From Longimicrobiales bacterium (GTDB lineage Bacteria; Gemmatimonadota; Gemmatimonadetes; Longimicrobiales; Gaopeijiaceae): a DNA stretch of 64,000 nt. The translations under genes and the position numbers were made by a program. The DNA lies in assembly GCA_965198065.1 (NCBI GenBank), contig CBDAON010000004.1:1-64000 (forward strand), read 5' to 3'. The number at the start of each line of letters is the position of its first letter. The stretch's first letter is position 1. The notes beneath the pieces are model-generated. The model did no database searches. It was not told where the DNA came from and saw nothing but the letters and a program-made list of their open reading frames with translations. This document shows positions 1,805 to 18,880 of the stretch, in pieces.

Positions 1805-3041
1805 CTATCTCTCGCCCGCGAGATAGGCCGCCCAATCGTCCATCAGCCGGCGCCTGCGCTCGAAGAGGTCCGAACGCGCATAGGCCGCTTCCACCTTGTT
1901 GCGAACCGCATGGGCCAACGCGGCCTCGGCGACCTCACGCGGTGCGTTGGAACACTCGCCGCACCAGTCCCTGAAGCTCGAACGAAAGCCGTGCGGCACA
2001 GCCGCGATACCCAGGTCTCGAAGTAGCGTGGAGAGTCTGCTGCCGGGAAATGCGCGGCCCTCCGACGACGGGGAAAACCAGACCGCTGCTGCCGCCGAGC
2101 GTCCGCGCCTCCTCGAGGATCTCCATGGCGCGCCCGGACAGCGGCACCCTGTGCGGGCGATGGGCTTTCGTGCGTTCGGCGGGAACCGTCCACTCCCGAG
2201 CCTCCAGGTCGATTTCATCCCACTGTGCCAAGCGAACCTCTCCCGAGCGGGCCGCCGTCAACACCAGGAACTCGAAGGCGAGTTTCGTGGCCGGGTAAGC
2301 GTGCGACTTCCGCACCATCTCCATCGCGCCCGCGACCTTCGAGTGAGGCAACGCGCGCATGTGCCGGATTACGGCTTGCTGTCGGCCAAGCGCTTGACCG
2401 AGCACATCGCTGGCGGGGTTGTCCGGCCGAAGCCCCATCGCCACCGCCCACTTCATCACCGCCCCGATGCGCTGGCGCACCCGCCGGGCCGTCACCTGCT
2501 TGTCGTGCCAGATCGGTGTCAGAACCGCCAGAACGTCGGCTGTCGTTATCTCGCCGACCGGTCGATTGCCCAGCTGTGGGAATGCATAGACGCGCAGGCT
2601 CGAGACCCAGTCCTGCGCATGCCTGGGGCTGCGCCAGCCCGGCCGAAGCTGTTCCAGAACACGGGCGGCCGCCTCGGCGAACGTGGGCATGTCCCGGACC
2701 TTGTATCGCTCGGTACGCGGATCGCCGCCCGAGCGCGCGATCTTGCGGTTCATGAATGCCTTCTCGCGCGCCTCGGCCAGCGATACCAGCTGGTAGCCCC
2801 CGAGCCCCAGCGTGCGGTTTCGACCCTGGATCCGCAGACGCTGCTCCCATCGGCGCGCGCCGGATCGGTCCACGCGCAGATAGAGGCCGTTCCCATCGCA
2901 GTAGTATCCGGGCTTGGCGCTGCGCACGAAGGCCGCGCTGAGTGCGTTGTGCGGCCGCCTGCCTCGGTGTTTGGGCAAATCCAATTCGGGAGTCCCCGTA
3001 TAAAGTATCGTATGTTGTATACGGGAACATAGTGGACACAC
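1805..3041 (-). pseudogene. P4-type tyrosine integrase with one frameshift near 2070
   Basis: Arm-binding domain (DGNGLYLRV...LGLGGY..VSLAEARE) and catalytic LTAARSGEV are in frame 1935..3041. HGFRSSFRDW, LAH and AAY are in frame 1805..2218. One extra base in the GGGG run at 2070-2073 separates them. Confidence 0.85.
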
Positions 3042-3088
3042 AGCGACACTGCAACCGGGAGTATCCTACATAACTCACTGTGGTAACT

Positions 3089-3763
3089 CTAGTTATATGA
3101 TATTACTAGACATGTATGGATCGTATTGGAATCTATGTGTAGCAGACGGTTGATCAGCTCGGAGAGGAGACGGGAAGCTTCGGCGGGCTCGAGCATCTCG
3201 ATCGGCGTGTGCTCCTCCACGAGCGCCCGGCCCGCGTCCACCGTCGAGCGAAAGCGGGCAGCGGCGGCCTCGATCTCGGACCGCAGGTAGGTGGGCGCGC
3301 CCCCTCGGCGGCGCTTCCACCACTGCCTGAGCCGGGAGGCGCTACCCGATGTGGGCCCGTCTGCCACCGTCCGGAGACGGGGATCGTGCGACCAGACCAG
3401 GTAGGCCCCGAGCTGCTGCACCCGCCCGGCCAGAAACGCACTCCGCTTACGCTGCGAGACCGCTACGATGCCGGAACCCTCGTCGTCCGCGGCCTCGGGC
3501 GAGGCCGGGCGCCGGAGTAGATAGAAGTAGAGGCGCGTGTCGGCGTCCAACCCCGAAAGCAGACGCTGCCAGCGGCCCAGCACGCGGTCGATCTGCTCGG
3601 GCGAACGCCCATCGACCACCGCAGGCTCCAGCCGTCCGGCCGCGATCAACTCGCCGGACCGGGTCAGGCACGTGCGGCCGTCCTCGAGCCAACCCCAGTA
3701 GGGCAGCTCCTCGGCCAGCGAGCCGGCCGCCTCGTGGTCTCTGAGCTCAGCGGCGATCCTCAC
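3089..3763 (-). pseudogene. virB4: VirB4/TrbE conjugative ATPase, N-terminal part only (truncated near 3150)
   Basis: GTG start overlaps the virB3 stop. LAEELPYWGW...TCLTRSGELI N-terminus. Coding character stops at ELINR and runs into AT-rich integrase-end sequence; no Walker motifs. Confidence 0.75.
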
Positions 3764-4062
3764 CGCCCGCTCCGGATCACGAGATGCCACGGCTCTTCGG
3801 CCCACTTGCCCGGGTCGAAACGCGACGGGTAGCGCGTCCCGGCGCGGAGCACGCCAAGCATGTCCGGGTCCTTGCGGCCGGCCAGCCATCCGGCCCCAAA
3901 GCCGACCGCGAACACCACGCCGCCCGTCACGAGCGAAGCCGTCGCGTTCCACATCGCGAGCCCGAGCGTGGCGACGAGGAGAAACCCCCTACGCTCCACG
4001 CCCAGGATCGTCAGCGGACGGTTCAGCGCCGCATAGCCGGCCCAGCGCCTCAGACCCCTCAT
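3760..4062 (-). CDS. virB3: VirB3/TrbD type IV secretion protein
   Basis: ALNRPLTILGVER motif, two hydrophobic segments and KDPDM; lies between the pilin and virB4. Confidence 0.85.
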   Translation of the reverse strand: MRGLRRWAGYAALNRPLTILGVERRGFLLVATLGLAMWNATASLVTGGVVFAVGFGAGWLAGRKDPDMLGVLRAGTRYPSRFDPGKWAEEPWHLVIRSGR

Positions 4063-4355
4063 CAGAACAGCCAGGCCAGGAAGTTGGCCGCGCCCATCGC
4101 CATCCCGAGACCGAAGATGATCCCGGCTAGCGTACGCTTGCTCCCACCCTCGCCGAACGCGAACATCAGCCCGCCCACCACGATCGCGATCAGCGAGAGC
4201 CCCCGAGCGATCGGACCCGTGAACTGCGCCTGTAGCTCGTTCACCGCCTCCACCCACGGGCTCGTCCCCTGCGCCCACAGCACCCCGGGGGACAGCAACC
4301 ACAGCGCTACCGTGGCCCAGGCCGCCGCTCGTACCGTCCTAATGAAAGGTTGCAT
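4062..4355 (-). CDS. virB2: VirB2/TrbC pilin
   Basis: Signal peptide, then SPW...FTGPIARGLSLIAIVVGGLMFAFGEGG, typical of TrbC/VirB2. Confidence 0.88.
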   Translation of the reverse strand: MQPFIRTVRAAAWATVALWLLSPGVLWAQGTSPWVEAVNELQAQFTGPIARGLSLIAIVVGGLMFAFGEGGSKRTLAGIIFGLGMAMGAANFLAWLF

Positions 4356-4390
4356 CGTCTGCTCCTTGGTCTCTCGCTGGGATGCGCCGA

Positions 4391-4882
4391 TCACTCGGCT
4401 TTGCCGCGGCTCAACGCGATCTGCTTGCGGATCCACTCATCCACCTCCTCCTCGATCCAGCCGACAGCGCGCGCGCCTAGCTGGACGGGTCTGGGGAAGG
4501 ACCCCTCGGCCAGCCGCACGTAGATCGTGCTCCGCCCGAGCCCCGTGCGAGCTTGCACGGCCGGGAGCCGCACGATGCGGATCGGCACCTCCATTTCCTG
4601 CACCATGGTTCTCGTCATCTCTCTGCCTCTCCGTTCTCTCTGGGATGAATCCCGGAGCCGGTCGCTCCGGGAGGAAACAGGGTCCACACCGGCCTCGTCG
4701 AAGCCTTCCATGAACGCCAGGAGCTGATCGACCGTCGCGAGCGTCGGGGAGCGGCCATGGCGTAGCTGACGCACCAGGTTCGGATCGCCAACCGCCTGGC
4801 GGCCAAGCGTCGCCGGCGCCACTCCCGTGCGCTCGAGGAACGCATCCACTCGCGCCATGAAATGCTCCGTCAACGTCTCCAT
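4391..4882 (-). CDS. Cro-like HTH fused to AlpA-family regulator/excisionase
   Basis: C-terminal IVRLPAVQARTGLGRSTIY...FPRPVQLGARAVGW is AlpA. N-terminal FLERTGVAPATLGRQAVGDPNLV..LR.GRSP is a Cro-like HTH. Confidence 0.8.
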   Translation of the reverse strand: METLTEHFMARVDAFLERTGVAPATLGRQAVGDPNLVRQLRHGRSPTLATVDQLLAFMEGFDEAGVDPVSSRSDRLRDSSQRERRGREMTRTMVQEMEVPIRIVRLPAVQARTGLGRSTIYVRLAEGSFPRPVQLGARAVGWIEEEVDEWIRKQIALSRGKAE

Positions 4883-5555: not shown

Positions 5556-6002
5556 ATGGACACCTGTACCACGGAACAGCGTCGGCGCATCATGCAGGCG
5601 GTCAAGAGCAGGGATACCGCGCCCGAAATGATCGTCCGTCGGCTCTTGCACAGCATGGGCTACAGGTACCGGCTCCATCGGAAGGACCTGCCGGGGAGGC
5701 CCGATGTCGCCCTTCTGTCGCGGCGCAAGGCCATCTTCGTTCACGGGTGCTTCTGGCACGGCCACCGCTGCCCCAAAGGGCGTCTGCCGAAAACACGCTT
5801 AGACTATTGGGAGCCGAAGCTTGCCGAAAACAGGACACGGGATAGAAAGAAAGAGGACCAGTTGCGTTCACTGGGGTGGAGTGTGCTGGTGATATGGGAA
5901 TGTCAGACCGCTGACCTCAAAGCCCTGTCCCTACGACTACGAAGTTTTCTGGGTAACGGGGAAACACGATGTGCAACCCCGAGCCGTGAAATATTAACGT
6001 GA
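5556..6002 (+). CDS. vsr: Very short patch repair endonuclease
   Basis: RRRIMQAVKSRDTAPE, LPGRPD, FVHGCFWHGH and GWSVLVIWEC motifs. Confidence 0.95.
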   Translation: MDTCTTEQRRRIMQAVKSRDTAPEMIVRRLLHSMGYRYRLHRKDLPGRPDVALLSRRKAIFVHGCFWHGHRCPKGRLPKTRLDYWEPKLAENRTRDRKKEDQLRSLGWSVLVIWECQTADLKALSLRLRSFLGNGETRCATPSREILT

Positions 6003-6361
6003 CTACGCCGTCCTCTGGGTCCCTATCTAGATCGGAGGTCAAGGCACTGGAGGCTGAGTACCATCAACGTTGTACGGTCCTCACCGACCGGTTGTGCGAT
6101 CTCCTGGGGGCGCCACGCTCTATCTTTCTGAGAATGATCTCCGAACACGGTGCGGTAGAGGCGACAAAGCGGATCGTTCATAGTGACAAGCCGTCCACCA
6201 CATTTGCAGACCTCTATATGCGAGGTCGGGGTGCGCGGTACCTGCACTTGACCGTCGAGGCTGTCATCATAACAGAGCGAAAGTGGGACCCACTCTTCAC
6301 TGATGCAGACCGTAACGCCGCCGAGACACGGCTGCATCAACATGGGTGGTCGCACACCTGA
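5999..6361 (+). CDS. Hypothetical 120-aa protein, coupled to vsr
   Basis: GTGA overlap with the vsr stop. The FLRMISEHGAVEATKR...LTVEA...LFT pattern resembles a domain I recall near or fused to restriction proteins (not verified). Confidence 0.65.
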   Translation: MTTPSSGSLSRSEVKALEAEYHQRCTVLTDRLCDLLGAPRSIFLRMISEHGAVEATKRIVHSDKPSTTFADLYMRGRGARYLHLTVEAVIITERKWDPLFTDADRNAAETRLHQHGWSHT

Positions 6362-6589
6362 GGCAGAGCCGAAGCGATCACCAGCACGCATCACATGATC
6401 ATGTCAATCTTAAGTTTCTCCAGTCCTAGCCGAGCGACACAACCGTCTACATGGCAGACCGATGCCTACCCTAGAAGCCATTCCGCACGTGTAACACCAT
6501 TGGTATAGGCCAGCAGTGTTTTCAAACTTCCCTCGATTTCGTGGTCTCTCTAGTGACTCCACCCTTTCAGAAGTGAACCGCGACACAAT

Positions 6590-8845
6590 ATGCTTAGCAC
6601 GAATTTCGTTGTAGATGCCGCAGTCCTCCAAGAGTTAGGAGAGCGCTTGATCGGTCGGCCCGACATCGCACTTGGAGAACTCGCCAAGAATTCTTTCGAT
6701 GCTGACGCTACGATTTGTAGGATTGAATTTACTGATGACCACATCGTGATTTCAGACAACGGCACAGGAATGTCTCGCCACATGTTTTTGACACACTGGA
6801 TGAGACTCTTCACTACTCACAAAATTGACCAGGCCATATCTCCCAAACTAGGACGCCCTTTGACCGGCTCTAAAGGTATTGGTCGCCTATCCGCTCAATT
6901 CCTTTCCCACGAAATGACTCTCGAAAGTACCTCCGAGGACAACCCCGATGAGTCGCTATACGCGATGGTAGATTGGCGTCATGCACGACGAACTGCGGAC
7001 CTAGATACCGTACAAGTCCTGTGGGAAGTCAAATCCACAACGTGCACCTATCCCGGAAATAGTCGGTCAGGAACCCGTATCACACTAAATCTGCTGAAAT
7101 CCACTTGGGATACCGAAGATATACGAGACCTTGGGAACAATCTGTGGTTGCTTCGTTCCCCTTTTAAGCGACTACAATACAAGTCGCCAATCACCGCTAC
7201 TAATCAGTTCGAGATAGAATTAAATGCTCCAACTATATCTGGTGCAAAGGCAGCGTTTGATGAGACTATTGACAACGTCCTCGCAAATTGGCAGGCGCGG
7301 ATTGAAGGGACACTGGAACATGGACGCTCCGGACACTCTGCTACTATTCACTTAGAGTTTCGACCTGATTATCCATCAGGATCTGAGAAATCCAGAAAAT
7401 TCAAGGAAAGAGTGGTGTTCCCGGTAGCAACATCCGACAAACCTCTACATCCACTGGTGGATACAGTCAGGTTCCAGATTCTCGTCTATCAAGCGAAAGG
7501 CAGGCAGCCGCATAGTATCTCAGTAGGTGACCTGCGGAGTTATCTTGTCAATTTTGGCAACGTTTCCGTGTACGACGCCGGTTTCAGGCTTCCATACTAT
7601 GGCTCCGGTGGGGACAAATCGGGACAAGACTGGCTCGGAGTAACGGCGGATCAAGGACGTCGGCTCAGCACATCGCCTCTTCTCCCGGAACGTCTCCAGT
7701 CGGGCGGCAGGTACATGCTGGATCTACCCTCCCCTAGGCGGCTCATAGGTGCAGTAGAAATCGATACGAATCATGAGAGGACGGCTGCTGTCCGCAGCGG
7801 TGACGACACGCAACCACGGCTTGAAATCCAGCCCGGGCGGGATCGTTTGAAAGCGAATGAAGCGTTTGCACAGCTCCGCGACCTTGTTCGCTACTCGCTC
7901 GACTTCTATGCGAGCCGTTTTCGAATGCTTGCACTCACCGCCGCCGAGGCGACAACGAAGGACACAAATGCCACGACAGAGATCGGCAGGGCAATTCAGG
8001 CCCTTGAACGGAGTAAAGACGAGATTCCACAGCCTGTTGTCCGAGAAATACGCCGTCACCTTAATCGGGCCCGGACGACCAGCCGTGCCACCAAGGATGC
8101 GGCCGATAGCCGGGCTGTACTGTTGGCGCCCCTGGCGGCGGCTGGAATGGCAGCGATTGCCCTCAGGCACGAGCTGATCCGCGAGAATCGCTCTTTGGGA
8201 CGAGTAATCAGTAGGATTCTGCAGGTCGCTGAGGAAAAGTCTCTCCCAGAACTTCGGGATAGTGCGCATAATCTAGCGGAATATCAGCGACGTGTGGATG
8301 CCTTGGATGAATTGTTCGCACCGCTTCTATACAACGAAGACAGGGAGGCAACGGATCGTCTCAAAGTTCGTGCCGTAGTCGAACAGTCGCTCCGAGGGAT
8401 GAAGCCGCTGATGCCTGGAGTGCGTTTCAACGATACGGTCACTATCCCAGAAGATCTTCTTTTCCCTAGAGGATCACTCGCGGAATGGAACGCAATTCTA
8501 CAGAACGTGTTGGCAAACGCATGGAACGCGATGTTGGATAGTGACAAAGCTCATATGTCCTTCGTGGGAGCTGGAGATAAACGTGGCAACAGATGGCTTC
8601 GCATTAGCGATACTGGACAAGGACTCGACCTCCCAATTGAGGACACGCACAAGCTATTCGATCCATTTGAGCGTAGAATCAACATCGGTGCAGACAAACA
8701 GTCGATTGCCATTGGAGGACAAGGTTTGGGTTTGGCGATAGTTAGAATGATCGCTCACCGTCGTGCCACACGCGCTGGCTTTGTACGCCCGCAGGCCGGA
8801 TACTCAACTACATTCGAGTTGTCGTGGCGAGGAGGACGCCGATGA
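6590..8845 (+). CDS. GHKL (MORC/HSP90-like) ATPase fused to a histidine kinase module
   Basis: N-terminal ELAKNSFDADA, ISDNGTGM, GSKGIGRLS, GTRITL. C-terminal H-box ALRHEL, N-box QNVLANAWNA, G1 ISDTGQG, F-box LFDPFE, G2 GQGLGLAIV. Confidence 0.9.
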   Translation: MLSTNFVVDAAVLQELGERLIGRPDIALGELAKNSFDADATICRIEFTDDHIVISDNGTGMSRHMFLTHWMRLFTTHKIDQAISPKLGRPLTGSKGIGRLSAQFLSHEMTLESTSEDNPDESLYAMVDWRHARRTADLDTVQVLWEVKSTTCTYPGNSRSGTRITLNLLKSTWDTEDIRDLGNNLWLLRSPFKRLQYKSPITATNQFEIELNAPTISGAKAAFDETIDNVLANWQARIEGTLEHGRSGHSATIHLEFRPDYPSGSEKSRKFKERVVFPVATSDKPLHPLVDTVRFQILVYQAKGRQPHSISVGDLRSYLVNFGNVSVYDAGFRLPYYGSGGDKSGQDWLGVTADQGRRLSTSPLLPERLQSGGRYMLDLPSPRRLIGAVEIDTNHERTAAVRSGDDTQPRLEIQPGRDRLKANEAFAQLRDLVRYSLDFYASRFRMLALTAAEATTKDTNATTEIGRAIQALERSKDEIPQPVVREIRRHLNRARTTSRATKDAADSRAVLLAPLAAAGMAAIALRHELIRENRSLGRVISRILQVAEEKSLPELRDSAHNLAEYQRRVDALDELFAPLLYNEDREATDRLKVRAVVEQSLRGMKPLMPGVRFNDTVTIPEDLLFPRGSLAEWNAILQNVLANAWNAMLDSDKAHMSFVGAGDKRGNRWLRISDTGQGLDLPIEDTHKLFDPFERRINIGADKQSIAIGGQGLGLAIVRMIAHRRATRAGFVRPQAGYSTTFELSWRGGRR

Positions 8846-10128
8846 AGATCCTGGTATGCGATGACTTCGAGAGCCGTTGTGAAGACTCCGCCGAAGAAGT
8901 ACGCAACGCTAGTGGTTGTATGGCAGACGTCTTGGCTGCTGACAATTTGACGACCACGCTCGAACAATTTTTTGACGGAGTCGGAAAATACTTAGATAGT
9001 ATGGAGACCGCTGATGGATTGGCCATCAAGTCGGCGTTCGATGGGTATGATATTATTGTAATTGATAACAACCTGACGCAGCTGAACATCAAGGGTACGA
9101 GGATGACGGCTGAGTCAATCATCGGTTACATCCGTGCCTTCAGTCGTGCCGCGTATGTTGTATCGCTCAACAAGAATCCTGATATTGATTTCGATCTTCG
9201 GTATCTAGCGGGTGACTACTTCACGCGGGCGGACTTAGCGGTAAACTCCAAACATCTAGATATTCCGGCACTGTGGCGAGGCCAACTCAACAACAGCACG
9301 AGCAAGTTTGCACCGTGGTACTGGAGGCCACTGTTGGAGGCGCCAGAGAAGCGTCGTATGCAGATCGCCATGGTCGCCTCCAAGTTCGACACTCCGGTGC
9401 TACAAGCTCTAGGTTTCTCTGAGGAGAATACAGCTGCCTTGTCGCCCCTTGCTAGAGAATCGTTGGCGCCGAGCGCACCATTAGCCGAAAGTGGAAGCGA
9501 GTCAACAGAGATTGAGGCGATTACGTTTCTGGATGTGTTTTTGGGAAGAGATCGCTCACTACCTGCGCTACATGATCGTGAAGTACTCGCAAGCACAGCA
9601 CGCACTGGACAAGCTGATGCGCGTCAGATTATTTCCCGTGTCGTCGCCTCAGATATCGAGCATTGGTTACGGTGTGACGTGTTGGCGCCCCAAGACACGC
9701 TGGTAGACGTGCCTCATTTGCTAATGCGGGTACCAGTTATTCTTGGAACGGAAGCGGTGGCAATAGCAGCGTGGAACAGAGCTGTCCGAGGCGACAGCCA
9801 ACCATACGGGCTTGCCACGGACGCATACCGTGCTCATATCGCTTCGTTCAAGTTCGACCATGATCGGTGGGGATTGCCGCCGTGCTTCTGGTGGCGTGGT
9901 ATTCAAAATGATGATGAGCTCGACAAAAAATTTCGAGAGGCAAGACGGGGCGATTGGATTGACGCAGTATTTTGCGAAGATACTTCGCGGTTTATTCTTC
10001 GTACAGGAGAAACTAATGGACCGACGGAATTTGTTACCCAATTGGAGGGACCTTGGGAGAGACGTTACATACAACAGGTAGATGAATTCAAGTACGCGCC
10101 GAAGACCCGCCTAGCATTGTCTTTGTAA
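8842..10128 (+). CDS. Receiver-domain protein with long uncharacterised C-terminal region
   Basis: ATGA overlap with the kinase stop. MKILVCDD and YDIIVIDNNL give the acidic pocket and a candidate phospho-acceptor Asp. No HTH output domain seen. Confidence 0.75.
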   Translation: MKILVCDDFESRCEDSAEEVRNASGCMADVLAADNLTTTLEQFFDGVGKYLDSMETADGLAIKSAFDGYDIIVIDNNLTQLNIKGTRMTAESIIGYIRAFSRAAYVVSLNKNPDIDFDLRYLAGDYFTRADLAVNSKHLDIPALWRGQLNNSTSKFAPWYWRPLLEAPEKRRMQIAMVASKFDTPVLQALGFSEENTAALSPLARESLAPSAPLAESGSESTEIEAITFLDVFLGRDRSLPALHDREVLASTARTGQADARQIISRVVASDIEHWLRCDVLAPQDTLVDVPHLLMRVPVILGTEAVAIAAWNRAVRGDSQPYGLATDAYRAHIASFKFDHDRWGLPPCFWWRGIQNDDELDKKFREARRGDWIDAVFCEDTSRFILRTGETNGPTEFVTQLEGPWERRYIQQVDEFKYAPKTRLALSL

Positions 10129-10147
10129 GAACAGGAGGCGAATCTAA

Positions 10148-10819
10148 TTGGAGAAGCTTATAACACTGATGGTTTTGTATTCCCGGCACGGAATCACGGA
10201 CTGGAGATCTACGTCGGATTCTCTTCGTACAGAAGTTCGTAGAGCTTTGGGGAACGCTGGTGTCGTTCGGAATGAAGCGGAAGCTGTACAGACCATCAAT
10301 AGATACTGGAATCAGGATAAAGTGCAGTGCCACAAATTCATACCGATGCCGAGACGTCCGGACAAAGAAGGCACATGTTGGTTTTTTCTCCCAATTCGCC
10401 AGCGAACTAACGGCGGTGCGGATTTAATCAGCTTTGAAGTATTCGTGTTAATTGAGGAAGAACATCGTTTAGCATTTAGATTTGAACCGGCAGACCGCGA
10501 TTCCACACATGACTACGGGCATGTACAGCTTACGAAATCACTTAGAAAAAAGACACTTGATGCACAAATTGTATCATGGCTTCCCGACAGTTACCCAGCG
10601 TTTCCGATAGGCACTTCGGACCCCCTAGACATCTTTTTGGCAATGGCAGTGTCCGTCCATGGCAATACGGGAGGCTTCGTACATCTTCTGCAAAGAATGC
10701 TCCAGATGGCAAATCGATCGAATGAGTACAGATTCTACGAGGAAAGGCTTCAAGAGGTACTGTTCAGATTCGCACCTGAAGAAGGAAGCGCCGATAACAG
10801 CGAACGTAGTCGCCTCTGA
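10148..10819 (+). CDS. Hypothetical protein (223 aa), last gene of kinase operon
   Basis: TTG start after CAGGAGG RBS; continuous ORF with FRFE...H.Y.H.Q motif. Confidence 0.7.
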   Translation: MEKLITLMVLYSRHGITDWRSTSDSLRTEVRRALGNAGVVRNEAEAVQTINRYWNQDKVQCHKFIPMPRRPDKEGTCWFFLPIRQRTNGGADLISFEVFVLIEEEHRLAFRFEPADRDSTHDYGHVQLTKSLRKKTLDAQIVSWLPDSYPAFPIGTSDPLDIFLAMAVSVHGNTGGFVHLLQRMLQMANRSNEYRFYEERLQEVLFRFAPEEGSADNSERSRL

Positions 10820-12164
10820 TGGTTGGGGCGATACCGTGCAACGCGGCGGCGAGCTTGCCATCCTTTAGTTTCACGTAAATGTCATCGATGTTATCATCCG
10901 GTGCAAAGATTGCATATACCGCGTGTGAGGGCACAGCACCTGATCGGTCAATTGCTGCGCGCGGCACCTTGGCCAATTCAGGTACTAGAATCTTTGGCCG
11001 TTGCCAGAGTAACGGGTGGATCCTGTCGATTGGGCGAAACCACGGAGCCCCATTCACTACAATCGTACGTGTCGCCAACTGCTTTCGGAAACGCAACAAT
11101 CTGGACTTCAGGAGAGGGAACTTCTCGATGTCTATCAGATTGCCGTCTGTGTCATGCATAGCGAGGACTCGACGACCTCGCCAGGCGACGGATCCGTCGG
11201 AGATCTCGGAAGCCGCTATCCACGGTAGCAGCAGTGGGTCGGTGACGTCGTGTTCGTCTGGCTCCAAGACATAGGCTCGAGTACAGCCCAAGGCCGGACC
11301 AACCTTGACCACGTATCCCAGGTCCGCTAGGGACTTCTTGCGATCGTTCGTTGACGTTCTAGTGTGTCTCTTCGGTTTGTTTCGTACGGAAGCGGTTAAG
11401 ATCATGGGATACGAACTGACGTTCTGTAGGAAAGCCTCATTCGCGGTGATACGACGCTCAGAGTGGACATCCAGCACCGGTAACCATTTTCTGCGGAAAC
11501 CTTCTGCGAATTGCATGAACCTCCACCGATCTGAGCAAAGGAAGCTGAAGTGGCCATTCTTTTGCAAAGCAGACAGGGATCGATCAAAGAACGGCAAGAA
11601 TAAATCTCCGCGAGCAATGTTCGTAGGAAGCACTTTCTCATACTGTTTCCTGAGTGCTAGGGGCACTTTCGACCATCGGACGTATGGCGGATTGCCGACG
11701 ATATGGGTAAAACCGCATGAGGGAAGTTTGGACAGAAGGAAATCCTCATTGAGAACCCATGAGCGGGTGCATGCTCGTATAGTATTGTGATGAAGCCCGT
11801 GGTCACGTAGTAGACGGGCCAATCGTTGTTGTGCTAGCTTTGCTTCTGTGGAGTGCAACTCGAAGGCCAGAATTCGCTTGACCAGTGTTCGGGCACTGGG
11901 AGTCACGTGATGCCTCTTGAAGGATCCGATGAGTCGCCCCACCGCTTCAACGAGAAAGGACCCATCGCCCGCTGCAGGTTCCAAGAGACGTGCATGAGAA
12001 AGGTCGTTTTCGGAAACCCATCCTACATCGTCCAGAATTGTGTTTACGATTTCGGGCCTAGTATAGACGCCACAGCGGCGATGTAGCGCATCAATGTCAC
12101 TCAGGACAGCTTTGGAGGTGTTCCCAAGGCTCGTGTTTGTGGAATGGGATTCGACTTTCTTCAT
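10764..12164 (-). CDS. N6-adenine DNA methyltransferase, gamma class (TaqI/Eco57I/PaeR7I-like)
   Basis: VYTRPEIV, motif I LLEPAAGDGSF, motif IV IVGNPPYVR and a TaqI-C-like tail. Start could be 12185. Confidence 0.9.
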   Translation of the reverse strand: MKKVESHSTNTSLGNTSKAVLSDIDALHRRCGVYTRPEIVNTILDDVGWVSENDLSHARLLEPAAGDGSFLVEAVGRLIGSFKRHHVTPSARTLVKRILAFELHSTEAKLAQQRLARLLRDHGLHHNTIRACTRSWVLNEDFLLSKLPSCGFTHIVGNPPYVRWSKVPLALRKQYEKVLPTNIARGDLFLPFFDRSLSALQKNGHFSFLCSDRWRFMQFAEGFRRKWLPVLDVHSERRITANEAFLQNVSSYPMILTASVRNKPKRHTRTSTNDRKKSLADLGYVVKVGPALGCTRAYVLEPDEHDVTDPLLLPWIAASEISDGSVAWRGRRVLAMHDTDGNLIDIEKFPLLKSRLLRFRKQLATRTIVVNGAPWFRPIDRIHPLLWQRPKILVPELAKVPRAAIDRSGAVPSHAVYAIFAPDDNIDDIYVKLKDGKLAAALHGIAPTIRGDYVRCYRRFLLQVRI

Positions 12165-12251
12165 CTGGACGCCAAGGCCATACATCTAAACGAAGACAAG
12201 CGAAACAATGAAGAAACGGGCACGTCTAGCCTCAACATTGTGAGCAGTGCG

Positions 12252-13379
12252 ATGTCAGTAACTGGACTTTTTGCTGGAATCGGAGGCTTCGAAGTGGCTT
12301 TTCGACAGATTGGAATCGAGTCCAACTTACTCGTAGAAATAGATTGTGATGCACGAGCCGTACTTAAGAAAAGGTTTCCAGACGTAGCCCTAGAGGCGAA
12401 TGTACTAGACCTAGAAGAGCTTCCCAAGGACACGACGATCCTAACCTGTGGATTTCCTTGCCAGAATCTCAGCATGGCGGGAGATAAGTCTGGTATTGAA
12501 GGGAAGAAATCGGGCACTGTACGAAAGATGTTCGAGTTCATCGGAAAGGCAGATGTGCCCACGGTCGTCATCGAAAACGTATGCTTCATGCTCCAGTTAG
12601 ATGTTGGTAGAGCGATGCGGTGGCTGGCAGATCAATTCGAAGATCTGGGTTACGATTGGGCATATAGAGTCTTGGATACGAGGGGATTCGGACTACCACA
12701 GCGCCGTCGGCGTGTTTACCTCGTGGCAAGTCGAGCGTCGGATCCACGAGCCGTATTGTTCGCTGATGAGCGGCCGGTGGAGAAGAAAGAGAAGCCAGAT
12801 TTGTCAAAGCCATTAGGATTCTATTGGACAGAGGGGCGGTCTGGATTGGGCCTAACGATTGACGCAGTCCCGCCTCTCAAAGTCGGATCGGGGCTTGGAA
12901 TACCATCCGCACCGGCAGTCCTGTTCGAGGACGGAGAAGTCTTGATGCCCAGTATTGAAGCCTGCGAACAACTGCAAGGGTTCGACGCTAGGTGGACTTC
13001 CGTCTCGAAGAAGGGAACGGTGAAACGAGGAGCGCGGTGGAGCATGGTCGGCAACGCTGTCTCAGTTCCGGTAGCCGAGTGGGTAGCGAAACGGATCCTC
13101 AAGCCAGGCGATGGCCATCATTTCGAAGAATTCCCATTGACTGGGGACCATCGGTGGCCAGCTGCCGCGTGGGGTGTTGGAAGGAGGCGAGTCGGCGTCG
13201 TTGCGAGCGACAAGCCGGTGTCCTCTCCAGCACGTTCGATTAGGGAGTTCCGCGACTCGAGCTGGAGCCGGCTGTCTCATCGGGCTCTAGGGGGTTTCAT
13301 TCGACGCGCTGAAGAAGGAAGACTGCGAATGCCAAAAGGGTTTCTCGAAACCCTGCGTCGTGCACCCCGTAGAGTCTAA
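12252..13379 (+). CDS. C5-cytosine DNA methyltransferase
   Basis: GLFAGIGG, GFPCQ, IENV, QRRRRVY, LQGF and GNAV motifs. The ORF is open from 12144. Confidence 0.93.
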   Translation: MSVTGLFAGIGGFEVAFRQIGIESNLLVEIDCDARAVLKKRFPDVALEANVLDLEELPKDTTILTCGFPCQNLSMAGDKSGIEGKKSGTVRKMFEFIGKADVPTVVIENVCFMLQLDVGRAMRWLADQFEDLGYDWAYRVLDTRGFGLPQRRRRVYLVASRASDPRAVLFADERPVEKKEKPDLSKPLGFYWTEGRSGLGLTIDAVPPLKVGSGLGIPSAPAVLFEDGEVLMPSIEACEQLQGFDARWTSVSKKGTVKRGARWSMVGNAVSVPVAEWVAKRILKPGDGHHFEEFPLTGDHRWPAAAWGVGRRRVGVVASDKPVSSPARSIREFRDSSWSRLSHRALGGFIRRAEEGRLRMPKGFLETLRRAPRRV

Positions 13380-13487
13380 GGATTCCATGGTGACCTATTC
13401 ACAGCGTCCTACGACCCAGTGTCAGCGCCAAGGCCGTGCTCGGAAGTACGTTTCTTCTGGAGCAGCTAGACACCGCTAGGGCTGATG

Positions 13488-13742
13488 TTACTGGACAGGG
13501 TGGCGTCGTCGCCGTTTGCGGTCAAACCTGCTCCGTGCCTCGACCTTCACCTTATCGAGGGCCTTCTTTAGCCGCTCGACTTCGCATTCTAACTCGGCAT
13601 ACGACATGCACTGGTGACTGATGGGAAACTCAAATTCAGGCGCTGGATCTCGTGCCATGATGCGAGCTACCTGGGACCCGATGAAAAGGCCTTCGCCTGG
13701 CTGCACTTCGGAATAGTCTAGTCTGATTTGATAGGCAGTCAT
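13488..13742 (-). CDS. Small hypothetical protein
   Basis: 84-aa ORF with ATG after an A-rich leader and a helical, basic C-terminus; no recognisable motif. Confidence 0.5.
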   Translation of the reverse strand: MTAYQIRLDYSEVQPGEGLFIGSQVARIMARDPAPEFEFPISHQCMSYAELECEVERLKKALDKVKVEARSRFDRKRRRRHPVQ

Positions 13743-13946
13743 TTTTGCTTCTCAGCTCCGTTCAGCAATACACCTCAATATGCGGAAAATGCCATTCCAA
13801 TTGTAATCTACGTGGTTGGCCGAGCCAACAAGGGTAGGGAGCCGGTGTCGCCGAGGGCTCGCACGCCGTCTCACGAGATCTCTGCGGCAAGGCTTTCGAG
13901 TCACGATGATGAGCAGAGCACCGTGAACCATCAACGGGGCCTAGGC

Positions 13947-15215
13947 CTAGTTAGTGTATCGCTTCCGACTCCCACCGGCGAGGTACGCCGCCCAATCGTC
14001 CATGAGCCGACGGCGGCGCTCGAACAGGTCGGAGCGCATGTAGGCGGCCTCGACCGGGTTCCGGACTACATGGGCCAGGGCCGCCTCGACGACTTCGCGG
14101 GGGTGGTCCGTCTCTTCGGCGGCCCAGTCCCTGAACGACGACCTGAACCCATGCGGCACCGCCGTGATCCCGTGCTTCCTGAGCAGCCGGCCCATCTGCT
14201 CGCCGCCCATCTCTCTGCCGCGCTTGCCGACGAACACGATCGGACTCCTGCCGCCGCCCAGCTTCCGCGCCGCGTCGAGAATCTCCAGCGCGCGGCCGCA
14301 CAGCGGCACACGGTGCGCGCGCAGGCTCTTCATCCGGCTCGCGGGGACCGTCCAGACGCGCTCCTCCCGGTCGATCTCGCTCCATACCGCCCCGCGGACC
14401 TCGACGCCCCGCGCCGCCGTGAGCACCATGAACTCGAACGCCAGCGCGTCCACCTTGCCCGCCTTCGCCGCCCGGACCTTCTCGATGGCCGCCCCCACCT
14501 CGCGGTGAGGCAGGGCCTTCCGGTGTCTGACGACATGTTGCTGGGAGCCGAGCACCGGCAGGAGCCGGTCGCACGGGTTGTCCGTTCTCCAGTCCATGGC
14601 GATGGCCCATTCCAGCACGGCGCGGATGCGGTGGCGAACGATCCGGGCCGTCGGCGGGTTCGCGTGCCAGATGGGTGTGAGGATCTCGAGCACGTCGGCG
14701 CTCGTCATCTCGGAGACCGGCACCCTCCCGATCCTTGGGAAGACGTGAATCTCGAAGCTGCGATACCAGTTCCTCGGCACCGCCGCGTTGCGCCATCCGG
14801 CGCTCTTCTGCTCGATGACGCGCTTAGCGGCCTCGGCGAAGGTGGGAATGCCCGCCGAACGCCGCTTCTCGGCCAGCGGATCGCCGCCCGCGCGGGCAAG
14901 CTTGCGGTTGGCCAGCGCCTGCTCCCGCGCCTCGGCGAGCAAGACCAGTTGGGCGTTGCCGAGTCCGAGCTCGCGCTTGCGGCCCCGGATCACGAGCCGC
15001 TGAATCCAACTCCGGGTTCCGGTCTTCTGGACGTAAAGGTAGAGACCGTTGCCATCGCAGTGCCTGCCGGGCGGTGCCGAGCGCACGAAGGCGGTCGAGA
15101 GCCGTTTGTGGGGATGGCGGCCCTTGGGCTTGCCTAGGCGGCGCTTGACGGGAGATCGAATCACATTATCCATCCCCCAATCATAACTGGGATGGAACGG
15201 GATCGCAAAGGGCAC
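13947..15215 (-). CDS. P4-type tyrosine integrase (intact)
   Basis: DGNGLYL, LTAARGVEV, HGFRSSFRDW, LAH and EAAY in one frame; clear paralogue of the 1805-3041 integrase. Confidence 0.93.
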   Translation of the reverse strand: MPFAIPFHPSYDWGMDNVIRSPVKRRLGKPKGRHPHKRLSTAFVRSAPPGRHCDGNGLYLYVQKTGTRSWIQRLVIRGRKRELGLGNAQLVLLAEAREQALANRKLARAGGDPLAEKRRSAGIPTFAEAAKRVIEQKSAGWRNAAVPRNWYRSFEIHVFPRIGRVPVSEMTSADVLEILTPIWHANPPTARIVRHRIRAVLEWAIAMDWRTDNPCDRLLPVLGSQQHVVRHRKALPHREVGAAIEKVRAAKAGKVDALAFEFMVLTAARGVEVRGAVWSEIDREERVWTVPASRMKSLRAHRVPLCGRALEILDAARKLGGGRSPIVFVGKRGREMGGEQMGRLLRKHGITAVPHGFRSSFRDWAAEETDHPREVVEAALAHVVRNPVEAAYMRSDLFERRRRLMDDWAAYLAGGSRKRYTN

Positions 15216-15579
15216 TGCTGGCAGAACGAGACAAGAAAGAAACTACGTAACCTGTTGTAAATACTGGATGTTATGCACCTACCCGGAACTCCTTGGACGG
15301 TATCGGATTCAAGTTGTGTGTTTTACGGCAACAAATCGTCTAGGTTCAACCAGGCTGCACGATCTGCCGCACTTGCCGTGAAGCGATACCACATCCTGAC
15401 GTGTCTGACGGCGGGAACTTGGCATCGAAATGCGCTGCGGGCACTGCGCTTGCTCATCGCAGCCTCATGCCCTGATCGCGGCGCACTCGCGAGCCGGGGT
15501 TTGGCCAAGATCGTGGAGGCATCAGTGGATGCCTCGGGCAACCTGAACAGCTGCCTGCTACCAGACGTCAGCCTTGCTG

Positions 15580-15646
15580 TCAGCGACGTCCGTGACCAAC
15601 CCTGGGGCGAGTGTAGTTTCACCTTTCCTGATCCTGACGGGTGTTG
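15580..15646 (+). pseudogene. VOC/glyoxalase C-terminal remnant interrupted by IS3
   Basis: DVRDQPWGECSFTFPDPDG resembles the VOC motif DQPWG.R.F...DPDG and ends at the IS target site. Confidence 0.4.
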
Positions 15647-15659
15647 TGACGTGACACCC

Positions 15660-16505
15660 TTAGTTGATCCGTTTATTCCCTGACTCCATGTGGTGGTTGA
15701 GGGCGAAGTCCGCAGGTGGGAGATCGCCCAGGGCGCTGTGGGGTCGGACGCGATTGTAGTCCTGCCTCCAGCGTTCGATCGTGTGCCTCGCATCCCGTAG
15801 GGAGAGGAACCAGTGGAGGTTCAGGCACTCGTCCCTGAAGCTCCCGAGGAAGCTCTCGACGAAGCAGTTCTGAATCGGCTTGCCCGGCTGTATGTATTCT
15901 ATCTTGAGGTCCCGGGAGTAGGCCCAGGCGTCGAAGGCACGGCTCGTGAACTCGGAGCCGTTGTCGCAGATCACGCGCTCCGGCAAGCCGCGTTCCTCCC
16001 GAAGTCTCTCGAGCACCTCGATCACGCTCGCCGCAGGGATCGAGTGAGCGACGTGGAGTGCCAGGCACTCGCGGCTGAACTCGTCGATCACCGCGAGGCA
16101 CCGGAACACTCGGCCCGTACTCAGCGTGTCCATGATGAAGTCCACGCTCCACCGCTCGTTCGGATGGCCGAGTGGGTCACGCACCGGTCGTGGTACCTGG
16201 CTCCGTCGTCTCCGACCCTTTCGCCGCACCGCGAGCCCTTCCTCGCGGTAGAGCCGGTGGATCCGCTTCCGGTTCACCAGCCATCCCTCGCGGCGCAGAA
16301 GCACGTGGATGCGTCGGTAGCCCCAGCGAGGCCGCTCGCCCGCGAGCTCCCGGATCCTCGCACGTAACCCCTCCTGAGCTGGGCGCTCGCTTCGGTACCG
16401 GATCGTTGAACGCGGGAAGCCTGTCCAACGGACCACTCGACGCTCCGAGGCCTTCTCGGCGGCTTGCACCCTCCGGACGACCTGGCGCCGCTCCCCGGCC
16501 GTCAC
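15660..16505 (-). CDS. IS3 transposase OrfB (DDE integrase core)
   Basis: WGYRRI, WSVDF, DNGSEF, PGKPIQN..VES, RDECLN and RPHSALG motifs. Confidence 0.93.
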   Translation of the reverse strand: MTAGERRQVVRRVQAAEKASERRVVRWTGFPRSTIRYRSERPAQEGLRARIRELAGERPRWGYRRIHVLLRREGWLVNRKRIHRLYREEGLAVRRKGRRRRSQVPRPVRDPLGHPNERWSVDFIMDTLSTGRVFRCLAVIDEFSRECLALHVAHSIPAASVIEVLERLREERGLPERVICDNGSEFTSRAFDAWAYSRDLKIEYIQPGKPIQNCFVESFLGSFRDECLNLHWFLSLRDARHTIERWRQDYNRVRPHSALGDLPPADFALNHHMESGNKRIN

Positions 16506-16768
16506 AACTCGTTTCCCAGCAGGTCCTTCAGCACCTGAAGGTTCAGCGCCTGGTCGGCCACGATGCGCTTGAGCCGTCGGTTCTCGTCCTCAAGTGCCTT
16601 CAACCGCCTCGCGTCACTGACCTCAAGGCCCCCGTACTTCTTCTTCCACCGATAGAACGTGTCGTGGCTGATCCCGTGGCGTCGGCATACCTCTTTCGTC
16701 GCTCCGCCCGCCTCCGCCTCCCGTAGGATCCCGATGATCTGCTCTTCCGTGAACCTACTCTTCCTCAT
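16502..16768 (-). CDS. IS3 transposase OrfA
   Basis: MRKSRFTEEQII...FYRWKKKYGG...LEDENRRLK; slippery heptamer G-GGA-AAC (16511-16517) leads into the -1 orfB frame. Confidence 0.93.
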   Translation of the reverse strand: MRKSRFTEEQIIGILREAEAGGATKEVCRRHGISHDTFYRWKKKYGGLEVSDARRLKALEDENRRLKRIVADQALNLQVLKDLLGNEL

Positions 16769-17538: not shown

Positions 17539-17816
17539 CATGCGCGTGTGGGAGTCCCGGACTCCTGCCGCTGGCCATCCCGTCCCCACCCGACCTCACC
17601 ACCCCGGGGCCACCCCGACCCGAACGGGGGAGCGCCTCAGCGCGGCAGGGCGTTCGGCCCCTGAACGGTCTCGGGTGCCGGGTCCTCGGGGGCTCCCGAC
17701 CGCACGCCGGCCATCTCGGCAAGAAGGGGTAGGCTCGGGCTCTCGGCAATGATCGGGAGCAGGTTCTGGATGAAGCTTGCCCCGTCGGACGGAGTGATCG
17801 TGTCGTTCAAGAATCC

Positions 17817-18880
17817 CGGTGGAGGCGGGAGTACGGCGGGATGAAGGTGAGCCAGGCACGGCGCCTGAAGGAGCTCGAGCGCGAGAACGGGCGCCTGAAG
17901 CGAGCAGTGGCGGACTTGACACTGGACAAGCTGATCGTGGAGGAAGCGGCCAAGGGAAACTTCTGAGCCCCGAGGGCCGACGACGTTGTGTGGTGCGTGT
18001 ACGTCAGCAGCTCGGGGCGTCGGAGAGGAGAGCGTGCCGGGTGCTCGGGCAGCCACGCACGACCCAGCGCGGGGCGAGGAAAGTGGCGAGTGACGAGGGG
18101 GCGCTCCGAGGTGATATCGTGCGACTCGCGAGTCGATTCGGCCGCTACGGCTAGCGACGCGTCACGGACACGCTCCGCATCGAGGGCTGGGGGGTGAAGC
18201 ACAAGCGGGTGGAGCGGATCTGGAGGCAGGAGGGGCTGAAGGTCCCGGAGCGGCAGCCGAAGCGAGGTCGGCTGTGGCTCAACGACGGATCGTGCATCCG
18301 GCTGAGGCCGCTGTATCGGGGCCACGTCTGGTCGTACGACTTCGTGGCCTCGAGGACGCACGACGGGCGTGCGCTGAAGCTGCTGACAGTGCTGGACGAG
18401 CACACGAGGGAGTGCCTGGCGATCGTGGTGGCTCGCAAGATCCGCTCGCACGACGTGCTCGAGGTGCTGGACGATCTGTTCGTCCGACACGGGCCCTCCC
18501 GAGTATCTGAGGTCGGACAACGGACCGGAGTTCACCGCGAAGCCCGTGCGGCGGTGGTTGGGGCGCGTGGGCGTCGAGACGCTCTTTATCGAGCCGGGCA
18601 GCCCGTGGGAGAACGGCTACAACGAGAGCTTCAACGGCAAGCTCAGGGACGAGCTGTTGAACGGGGAGATCTTCTGCTCGTTGGCGGAGGCGGCCGTGCT
18701 GGTCGAGCAATGGAGGCGCGAGTACGATACCGTCCGACCCCACAGCGCCTGCGGCGGCTTTCCCCCGGCCCCTGAGGCGATTAAGCCGTCGCCCTGGTTC
18801 CTGAGGATGCCCGTCCTTCACCGCCCTCCACAGGTGCTGGGACTAACATAGGTTGTGGTACCGCTCTTCGGGGCAGGTCA
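17817..18880 (+). mobile_element. Decayed IS3-family element (left end deleted)
   Basis: orfA 3' half RWRREYGGMK...KGNF with G-GGA-AAC. orfB has an in-frame TAG at 18152 and a frameshift near 18495. IS3-like right end ...GGGGCAGGTCA. Confidence 0.85.

Follow-up and report, generated by a model that had tools for sequence, protein, structure and literature searches.

HEF_HK kinases (PF19191) and Response_reg_2 receivers (PF19192) form pairs which adjoin C5 methylases and Vsr, as described by Bellieny-Rabelo et al. (2021, PMC8011034). Ambrosia (AbrR-A-B-C-D; van den Berg et al., 10.1101/2025.09.30.679545) is a validated anti-phage system; according to that report, mutation D60A in the receiver abolishes defence, phage gained no protection from methylation, and infection raised expression. 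Prokaryotic MORC and paraMORC proteins carry an N-terminal GHKL ATPase in methylase and Vsr neighbourhoods (Iyer et al. 2008, PMC2292703); receivers are not mentioned in the running text of that paper. PaeR7I methylates the adenine of CTCGAG (PMC3031569). At stake is what methylase-linked kinase-receiver cassettes sense and trigger.

One such cassette resides in the window, the whole 64,000-nucleotide stretch of Longimicrobiales DNA analysed. The earlier note had described it correctly: all seven ORFs were confirmed at 5556-13379, and the GC content is lower than that of the genome (52.7% vs 67.0%). Kinase, receiver, 223-aa, N6 and C5 methylase genes make the module; flanking genes are listed last.

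5556..6002, + strand: Vsr very-short-patch repair endonuclease (PF03852, 8e-33; TIGR00632 over cut-off)
5999..6361, + strand: 120-aa ORF, passenger outside the module (family search and locus comparison)
6590..8845, + strand: soluble GHKL-ATPase/histidine kinase, 751 aa (HATPase_c_3, HATPase_c, H-box)
8842..10128, + strand: receiver-domain protein, 428 aa from ATG (modelled receiver fold and conserved residues)
10148..10819, + strand: 223-aa protein, candidate effector (invariant residues, locus conservation)
10764..12185, - strand: N6-adenine methyltransferase, full-length relative of M.PaeR7I (Eco57I-type domain, alignment)
12144..13379, + strand: C5-cytosine methyltransferase (PF00145, 1.6e-41; PADLOC PDLC03324, 2e-111)
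13947..15215, - strand: intact tyrosine integrase, flank (domain search)
1805..4882, - strand: decayed conjugative flank, with frameshifted integrase, truncated virB4-like ORF, virB3, virB2 and AlpA

Conservation of the module and its relation to known systems

Related loci were collected from genomes (31) and metagenomes (51), 82 in all. The earlier note had held beforehand that its reading would fall if the gene set varied between genomes; the set is conserved as a unit, all five genes being present in 47/47 loci with sufficient flank. Taken singly, the kinase gene was found in 75/75 loci having upstream DNA, the 223-aa gene in 73/74 having downstream DNA, the N6 gene in 67/68 and the C5 gene in 55/55. 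Vsr marks 31 of the 47 well-flanked loci, in varying position and strand, and is fused to the C5 methylase in one (L083); beyond five genes and Vsr, no further gene is conserved in related loci. The 120-aa ORF, formerly counted as cargo, has no family match and no relative in the 82 loci, and is regarded as a passenger. No restriction enzyme or nuclease is conserved in the 82 modules or within 2.5 kb of them, in keeping with the earlier statement that a recognisable restriction enzyme is missing.

The module is a five-gene mobile unit, carried by integrative elements, plasmids, and one viral contig which contains all five genes. Most copies reside in Acidobacteriota, Alpha- and Gammaproteobacteria, and Gemmatimonadota; two actinobacterial plasmids host distant versions, in which the order kinase-receiver-223-aa is kept. 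The module is absent from 60/60 host relatives examined. In several cases the locus lies next to or within another methylase-helicase operon, and a DEAD helicase adjoins 12 loci. Pairwise identities correlate at 0.83–0.89 among kinase, receiver and N6 methylase (N6 at 0.83 and 0.84 with kinase and receiver, respectively), at 0.68–0.74 with the 223-aa protein, and only at 0.33–0.54 with the C5 methylase. The latter, together with Vsr, resembles a second mark and the repair enzyme that goes with it, tied less tightly to the rest.

Broken genes were counted in 76 non-redundant loci, excluding genes touching contig ends, scoring single-piece divergent copies (L024, L075, L077) as whole, and dropping the broken kinase of L079 as redundant. 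Breaks affect 3/110 methylases vs 14/200 genes of the kinase-receiver-223-aa trio, a difference which is not significant (p=0.12); the strong asymmetry seen with loose thresholds (15 vs 1) was reduced to these values. In two loci (L009, L099) the N6 gene is broken while the trio next to it looks whole.

The HEF_HK elements likewise feature a soluble kinase made by HATPase_c_3, H-box and HATPase_c, adjoined by a receiver with an unknown tail, and their neighbourhood is matched by the C5 methylase (55/55) and Vsr (31/47) of the module. PF19191 does not match the window kinase at its cut-off (24.1 bits), and 3 of 14 kinase relatives score 16.8–22.2 bits, as against 97–102 for two true members. 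PF19192 matches none of 48 module receivers at E<=1; when a receiver profile is compared with four true Response_reg_2 members, the alignment covers just 21 columns, those around the Asp (E 0.017). Module proteins are also shorter (kinases of 750 aa vs open frames of 991 and 1237 aa in the two true members, receivers of 430 aa vs 543–624 aa), and the module is set apart by an apparent Asn in place of the conserved Lys, by a constant third gene and by a constant N6 methylase of the PaeR7I type. Judged from these sequences, the module is a distant sister family of HEF_HK/Response_reg_2, rather than a member.

Ambrosia has in common with the module, in terms of domains and not of sequences, an N6 methylase, an HSP90-like ATPase/histidine kinase and a receiver. 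Its HNH nuclease AbrD and XRE regulator AbrR have no conserved counterpart inside the 82 modules or within 2.5 kb of them, and none in the window. Unlike Ambrosia, the module includes a C5 methylase, Vsr and a protein of unknown fold, and has a convergent and divergent gene layout. Pfam detected no wHTH on the module receivers. The N6 methylase is homologous over its full length to that of the PaeR7I restriction-modification system, but is ~50 residues shorter in mid-protein, and where the PaeR7I nuclease would lie, the module has the 223-aa gene, on the opposite strand. The paraMORC proteins have a similar N-terminal ATPase and a similar neighbourhood; the module differs by the C-terminal histidine kinase and a core devoid of helicase.

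The class is thus known already from the HEF_HK pairs (2021) and Ambrosia (2025), and the five-gene family is a variant, in which the full-length PaeR7I-type N6 enzyme and the CTCGAG depletion are new. The phosphorelay tied to DNA methylation that the earlier note had proposed finds partial support in the Ambrosia precedent and in the conservation of the unit; as a class it is not new (PMC8011034). A search of the literature, mostly outside subscription journals, retrieved no paper on exactly this family, which is compact, has a fixed gene content and provides two handles that the others lack, a predicted CTCGAG target and a motif-bearing candidate effector.

Features of the module proteins

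In the kinase, HATPase_c_3 spans residues 26–120 and HATPase_c residues 636–743. The GHKL motifs (E30/N34, D56-G58-G60, GxKGIGRL at 93–100) and the G1, F and G2 boxes are conserved in relatives, and the H-box H527-E528, which follows an unassigned middle part, is found in 64/64. There is no transmembrane segment, the highest 19-residue hydropathy (1.73) corresponding to the helix preceding the H-box. Domains, motifs and hydropathy agree with the protein described earlier, cytoplasmic and endowed with two ATP-binding folds and intact boxes. Residues 6–185 resemble the N-terminus of the BbrUII/HgiDII restriction enzymes, far below cut-off (1e-20).

Translational coupling of the receiver, also claimed earlier, is borne out by the ATG at 8842, which overlaps the kinase stop (ATGA); because of this overlap the protein probably measures 428 aa, not 434. 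Residues are numbered according to the 434-aa form from GTG 8824. Modelling gives the N-terminal ~185 residues a receiver fold (Z 9.9, rmsd 3.2, 121 residues aligned to NtrX). Among 70 relatives, D13 is conserved in 66, D14 in 68, D81 and S114 in all 70, K117 in 49. Position 141 falls, by the secondary structure of the model, where the fifth strand ends and the canonical Lys is expected; it is Asn in 67/70 and Lys in 2/70. The receiver thus appears to carry Asn for the canonical Lys, and may not be phosphorylated in the normal way. The C-terminal part (245 aa) features invariant R283, D295, H298 and C-E-D at 384–386, and is barely covered by modelling; 0/48 receiver proteins have a Pfam HTH match.

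The 223-aa gene starts at a TTG preceded, 9 nt upstream, by AGGAGG. Among representatives of 50% clusters, 652 proteins are related to its product at E<=0.001, and R111, E113, H121, H125, Q127 and P150, each conserved in 63/63, denote an invariant motif R-x-E/H-x-Y-x-H-x-Q. Neither this protein nor the receiver has a solved relative by sequence. The 223-aa protein matches no restriction-enzyme family, and Prok-E2_B only in 1 of 37 relatives (E 0.017). When its model (pLDDT 88.9) was searched with Foldseek, neither PDB nor the viral models gave a match, and a wide structure search had a best hit of Z 4.8 (rmsd 5.6); these results prove neither a new fold nor its absence. Since family and fold matches are lacking, nuclease activity is a guess from the motif; the protein may represent a new enzyme family. 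Ulp1-type proteases recur at Z 3.5–4.8, and were rejected because the family has no conserved Cys. DUF2290, known from the Helicase+DUF2290 defence system, shows a similar spacing (R-x-[DE], then H-x3-H) and is a language-model neighbour at 0.81–0.84, under 0.9, and a lead only; PF10053 matches none of the 223-aa relatives (0/37 and 0/31), and profile-profile comparison gave no significant match, the hhalign score of 14, obtained with a narrow 119-row alignment, lying inside the shuffled range (10.5–19.2).

Wherever its context was inspected, the 223-aa gene comes third in the kinase operon, including at a locus beside a real PaeR7I nuclease (L084); contexts were sampled mostly via the receiver, so that stand-alone copies could escape. 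The predicted complex of receiver and 223-aa protein scores 0.59 (best of 3 controls, 0.00), in a range where, although the mark is reached by 116/157 solved and 2/215 mismatched pairs, scores <=0.60 at the mark comprise only 18 solved pairs and both mismatches. Runs share at least 86% of contacts, with partner pLDDT of at least 83. The model lends weak support to binding of the 223-aa protein to the receiver.

Both methylases have intact catalytic motifs, as noted earlier (NPPY in 59/59 N6 relatives; PC, NV and RxR in 55/55 C5 relatives). The domain of the C5 enzyme passes the Pfam cut-off, and its conserved part begins at Met37 (12252). The established role of Vsr suggests a standing host 5mC. 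CCWGG is the most depleted 5-mer in modules (0.76; flanks 0.89), and is not attributed to the C5 enzyme. The Eco57I-type domain of the N6 enzyme passes the cut-off, and 27% identity to the PaeR7I methylase over 501 columns (E 7e-54), C-terminal half included, predicts CTCGAG or a similar target. No hexamer is more depleted in module DNA than CTCGAG (86 seen vs 179 expected, 0.48, in 56 non-redundant modules, whose kinship makes counts not independent), and codon shuffling gave 77 vs 145 expected. GTCGAC, ATCGAT and TTCGAA occur at 0.91–1.06 of expected; CTCGAG is missing from 13 of 46 modules, GTCGAC from 1. Flanks also show depletion (0.64), the paired module-flank test being borderline (24/36, p=0.065), and the host genome, at 0.93, shows no avoidance. 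No close relative of the module methylases was found in 50,697 phage records.

Proposed mechanism and alternatives

A defence role of some kind is likely. As main reading, to which a probability of roughly 0.4 is assigned, a methylation-gated phosphorelay would replace the restriction enzyme and release a new effector. Self DNA would carry the mark of the N6 methylase at CTCGAG-like sites; DNA lacking it would be sensed by the GHKL-kinase, whose His527 would hand phosphate on to receiver Asp81; once phosphorylated, the receiver would set free or switch on the 223-aa protein, a putative effector of nuclease-like type. From the gene set and its conservation, catalytic motifs, receiver fold, PaeR7I kinship and CTCGAG depletion we infer target site, DNA sensing, phosphotransfer, direct receiver-effector binding and effector chemistry. 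Sequence reading may be a task of the N6 enzyme itself, given its co-divergence with kinase and receiver. A stricter version is doubtful, in which the PaeR7I-derived methylase both writes and helps read CTCGAG, and absence of the mark triggers His-Asp phosphorylation, whereupon an effector of new fold and new active site is set loose by direct action of the atypical receiver. If true, self/non-self sensing would be post-translational and sequence-specific and would run through a two-component relay, whereas the model for Ambrosia is transcriptional.

Conservation as a unit, patchy spread, lack of a conserved nuclease, PaeR7I kinship, CTCGAG avoidance, co-divergence, the weak predicted receiver binding and the Ambrosia precedent favour the gated relay. 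Depletion in flanks, the borderline paired test, lack of host avoidance, the receiver Asn and methylase breaks that are not significantly rarer than those of the trio count against it, as does Ambrosia, where the logic is opposite and phage is not protected by the methylase. Broken N6 genes beside apparently whole trios (L009, L099) would be unexpected under lethal self-attack, unless the C5 enzyme covers or the breaks are sequencing errors. The same two loci would be harmless if the module worked as Ambrosia does, as a relay switched on by infection, in which methylases mark DNA, the effector attacks marked DNA and control is transcriptional. The shared core parts agree with this, given that in Ambrosia methylation was not protective and expression was induced by infection (10.1101/2025.09.30.679545), and CTCGAG avoidance also fits the shunning of a damaging mark; the account is nonetheless unlikely, as no XRE or HNH gene is conserved, HTH matches are lacking in 48 receivers, and the methylase genes occupy separate, opposed transcription units. 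The standing 5mC suggested by Vsr also disagrees with it.

Alternatively, the kinase could monitor the methylases or the methylation level, and phage inhibition (DNA mimics, SAM depletion) would fire a suicide effector. Co-divergence of N6 with kinase (0.83) and receiver (0.84) fits such guarding, as does nesting in methylase-helicase operons with a DEAD helicase at 12 loci; a broken N6 beside a whole trio should however kill, and guarding itself does not predict site avoidance in modules, which makes this explanation improbable. Site avoidance and invariant polar residues would be expected of a stand-alone type II restriction enzyme of new fold, with the kinase pair as loose regulator or hitch-hiker, and the 223-aa gene lies at the methylase 3' end like the PaeR7I nuclease, though on the opposite strand. 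This is very unlikely for a gene that comes third in the kinase operon wherever inspected, even beside a PaeR7I nuclease, whose product matches no restriction-enzyme family; the weak predicted receiver binding points the same way. Equally hard to credit is a selfish addiction or epigenetic-signalling module which stabilises its mobile element: carriage by integrative elements, plasmids and a viral contig and the frequent decay of copies are consistent with it, but the closest tested system is anti-phage and the neighbours are defence genes.

Flanks and source reads

The frameshifted integrase at 1805-3041 cuts off the truncated ORF, which we take to be virB4-like from position and resemblance, and which has no match in Pfam; an IS3-type transposase is also found among flanking genes. 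Of the integrase-bounded element proposed earlier, integrases on both flanks were confirmed, boundaries were not, as a search for att repeats found none. Intact cargo next to decayed conjugation genes was likewise observed; recent arrival would explain it as well as the selection read into it earlier. A promoter scan performed at chance (5 found vs 5.6 expected). Most read joints trace to other organisms or to the two integrases. In run X1, which may be the source sample, one contig spans 5736-14008 with 0 differences; a contig from a second study spans 5736-8941 with 32 differences.

The cargo and its flanks

The seven-ORF cargo described in the earlier note, with two ATP-binding folds, Vsr and two methylases, is present in the window, and related integrases lie on either side of it.

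1805-3041: left integrase, frameshifted, interrupting a virB4-like gene
Flanks of the cargo: virB2, virB3, a cut virB4-like frame, one frameshifted and one intact integrase
5556-13379: vsr, a 120-aa ORF, a 751-aa double-ATPase protein (the kinase), a receiver, a 223-aa protein, an N6 methylase (minus strand), a C5 methylase
13947-15215: right integrase, intact, same strand as the left one
15323-16768 and 17807-18851: remnants of IS3-type transposases, downstream of the right integrase

Family scans of the window proteins matched Vsr, HATPase_c_3 plus HATPase_c, Eco57I-type methylase and C5 methylase domains, and gave no match for the receiver, 223-aa and 120-aa proteins. The cargo measures 52.7% GC versus 67.0% for the genome, the lower value being as first noticed. 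An exact copy of 5736-14008 resides on one contig of a public run, and a variant of 5736-8941 in a second study.

The two integrases are 71-77% alike in stretches. In public runs, relatives of the integrase and of virB2/B3 are very abundant, the cargo rare. A second cassette of the same genome (G000:C4:869232-876632) includes a methylase-like frame, a GHKL ATPase, a C5 methylase and Vsr, and adjoins an integrase closely resembling the broken one of the window at 1935-3041.

Conservation of the module

The module (kinase, receiver, 223-aa protein, N6 and C5 methylases) is real and conserved. An alignment of 48 receiver relatives, used as query, retrieved loci from GTDB genomes (31) and metagenomes (51), 76 of which remain distinct at 95% nucleotide identity. 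The kinase lies upstream of the receiver in 75/75 loci with room, and the 223-aa gene downstream in 73/74; N6 and C5 methylases are present in 67/68 and 55/55 loci, respectively. Conservation of the set across genomes, which the earlier note had wanted checked, is borne out by all 47 long-flanked loci, which carry the five genes (Vsr in 31/47). The 120-aa ORF, counted there as cargo, drops out, having no relative among module loci. When all remaining ORFs around the loci were clustered, no other gene proved conserved; a DEAD helicase, seen in 12 loci, was the most frequent neighbour.

Kinase, receiver and 223-aa genes (the trio) are usually co-directional, N6 faces the trio, and C5 is back to back with N6; layouts are rearranged in L029, L053, L059 and L081. 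Carriers belong to Acidobacteriota, Pseudomonadota, Gemmatimonadota and Nitrospinota. On a 30-row kinase tree 3 changes of phylum are required, so the spread is lineage-clustered and patchy. The receiver is absent from 60/60 host relatives.

Pairwise identities, whose correlations are all inflated by shared descent, correlate at 0.83-0.89 among kinase, receiver and N6 methylase, at 0.68-0.74 between these and the 223-aa protein, and at 0.27-0.54 for C5 and Vsr; the difference points to a core of four genes and a C5/Vsr pair that can be exchanged. Gene breaks did not discriminate methylases from trio (p=0.12). In L009 and L099 the N6 gene is broken and the trio apparently whole.

In eight loci (L001, L002, L004, L009, L013, L016, L022, L070) genes for an Eco57I-like methylase and a DEAD helicase enclose the module, which apparently sits within another defence operon. 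A gene for a 980-aa N6/N4 methylase recurs nearby in nine loci (L012, L015, L017, L018, L029-L031, L063, L064).

Features of the proteins and the predicted target site

The kinase boxes (H/N/G1/F/G2), earlier read as intact, are conserved in relatives, as are the GHKL motifs, and His527-Glu528 is found in 64/64. The NCBIfam models nearest to the kinase N-terminus are the N-termini of BbrUII/HgiDII restriction enzymes, which favours a DNA-acting ATPase. The identification of the next protein as a receiver is upheld by a predicted receiver fold over residues 5-187. D13, D14, D81 and S114 (434-aa version) are conserved, and Asn141 appears to occupy the position of the canonical Lys. Invariant residues of its own also mark the tail, which matched no known family.

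The 223-aa protein has a confident structure model, which found no fold match in structure searches. As R111, E113, H121, H125 and Q127 are invariant, also in actinobacterial versions, they suggest a putative active site. Motif spacing is like that of DUF2290, but a profile-profile test gave no significant score. The predicted receiver-223-aa complex scored 0.59 (best control 0.00), a low level at which 18/157 solved pairs passed, with both passing mismatches (2/215); this lends weak support to binding.

The best plasmid matches of the N6 methylase are PaeR7I-type methylases (27% identity over full length to one such enzyme); PaeR7I, according to the accessible part of PMC3031569, methylates the adenine of CTCGAG. 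In 56 modules with receiver identity <70%, which are kin, CTCGAG is the lowest hexamer under a Markov null (86 seen, 179 expected) and second lowest under codon shuffling (77 versus 145). The ratio is low in each of six genes (0.46-0.60, receiver 0.40); the other three palindromes around TCGA score 0.91-1.06. Flanks give 0.64 for CTCGAG and 0.73-0.87 for the other three, the host genome 0.93 for CTCGAG. The paired module-flank test gave 24/36 (p=0.065). In the window, CTCGAG makes up 2/49 TCGA inside the module versus 71/456 outside. The avoidance is a good lead to the predicted N6 target, short of proof.

Proposed mechanism and related systems

The favoured, still tentative reading (probability about 0.4) is that N6 methylation would mark self, the GHKL-kinase would detect unmarked sites, the methylase perhaps acting as reader, phosphate would pass from His527 to Asp81, and the receiver would then release a bound effector, the 223-aa protein. 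Beyond gene content and motifs, we infer every step. As described in PMC8011034, soluble HATPase_c_3-HEF_HK-HATPase_c kinases pair with receivers near C5 methylases and Vsr; the module would work alike, but lies outside both Pfam families: HEF_HK gave only sub-threshold scores (3/14 module kinases), and Response_reg_2 matched no module receiver.

Ambrosia, in the accessible part of its report (10.1101/2025.09.30.679545), proves that such a kinase-receiver-methylase class can stop phage, and requires the receiver Asp. A similar logic, with marking induced and marked DNA attacked, is rather unlikely here; Ambrosia as there described has XRE, wHTH and HNH parts, none of which was found in the module. 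A guard system watching the methylases is given the same low odds. It is less probable still that the 223-aa protein is a new nuclease standing alone, and just as improbable that the module has no defence role. The partly accessible literature searched yielded no description of this five-gene family; what is new within an already known class is an unnamed candidate effector family and a testable predicted target site.

Distant versions reside on plasmids. That of Mycolicibacterium arabiense (L083) features N6, a C5-Vsr fusion (7089-8753) and the trio, with two unknown genes between fusion and kinase, and no annotated nuclease. In Ornithinimicrobium (L084:8222-17837) vsr, dcm and a broken trio adjoin a whole PaeR7I nuclease-methylase pair; such an arrangement could be a halfway stage in the recruitment of the N6 methylase. 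Members of the same C5 methylase family also occur, without the trio, on two Bosea plasmids (L087 and L091, 4700-9150), where a DUF488 gene and three unknown but conserved genes stand back to back with them; this group is another unexplained methylase-linked module.
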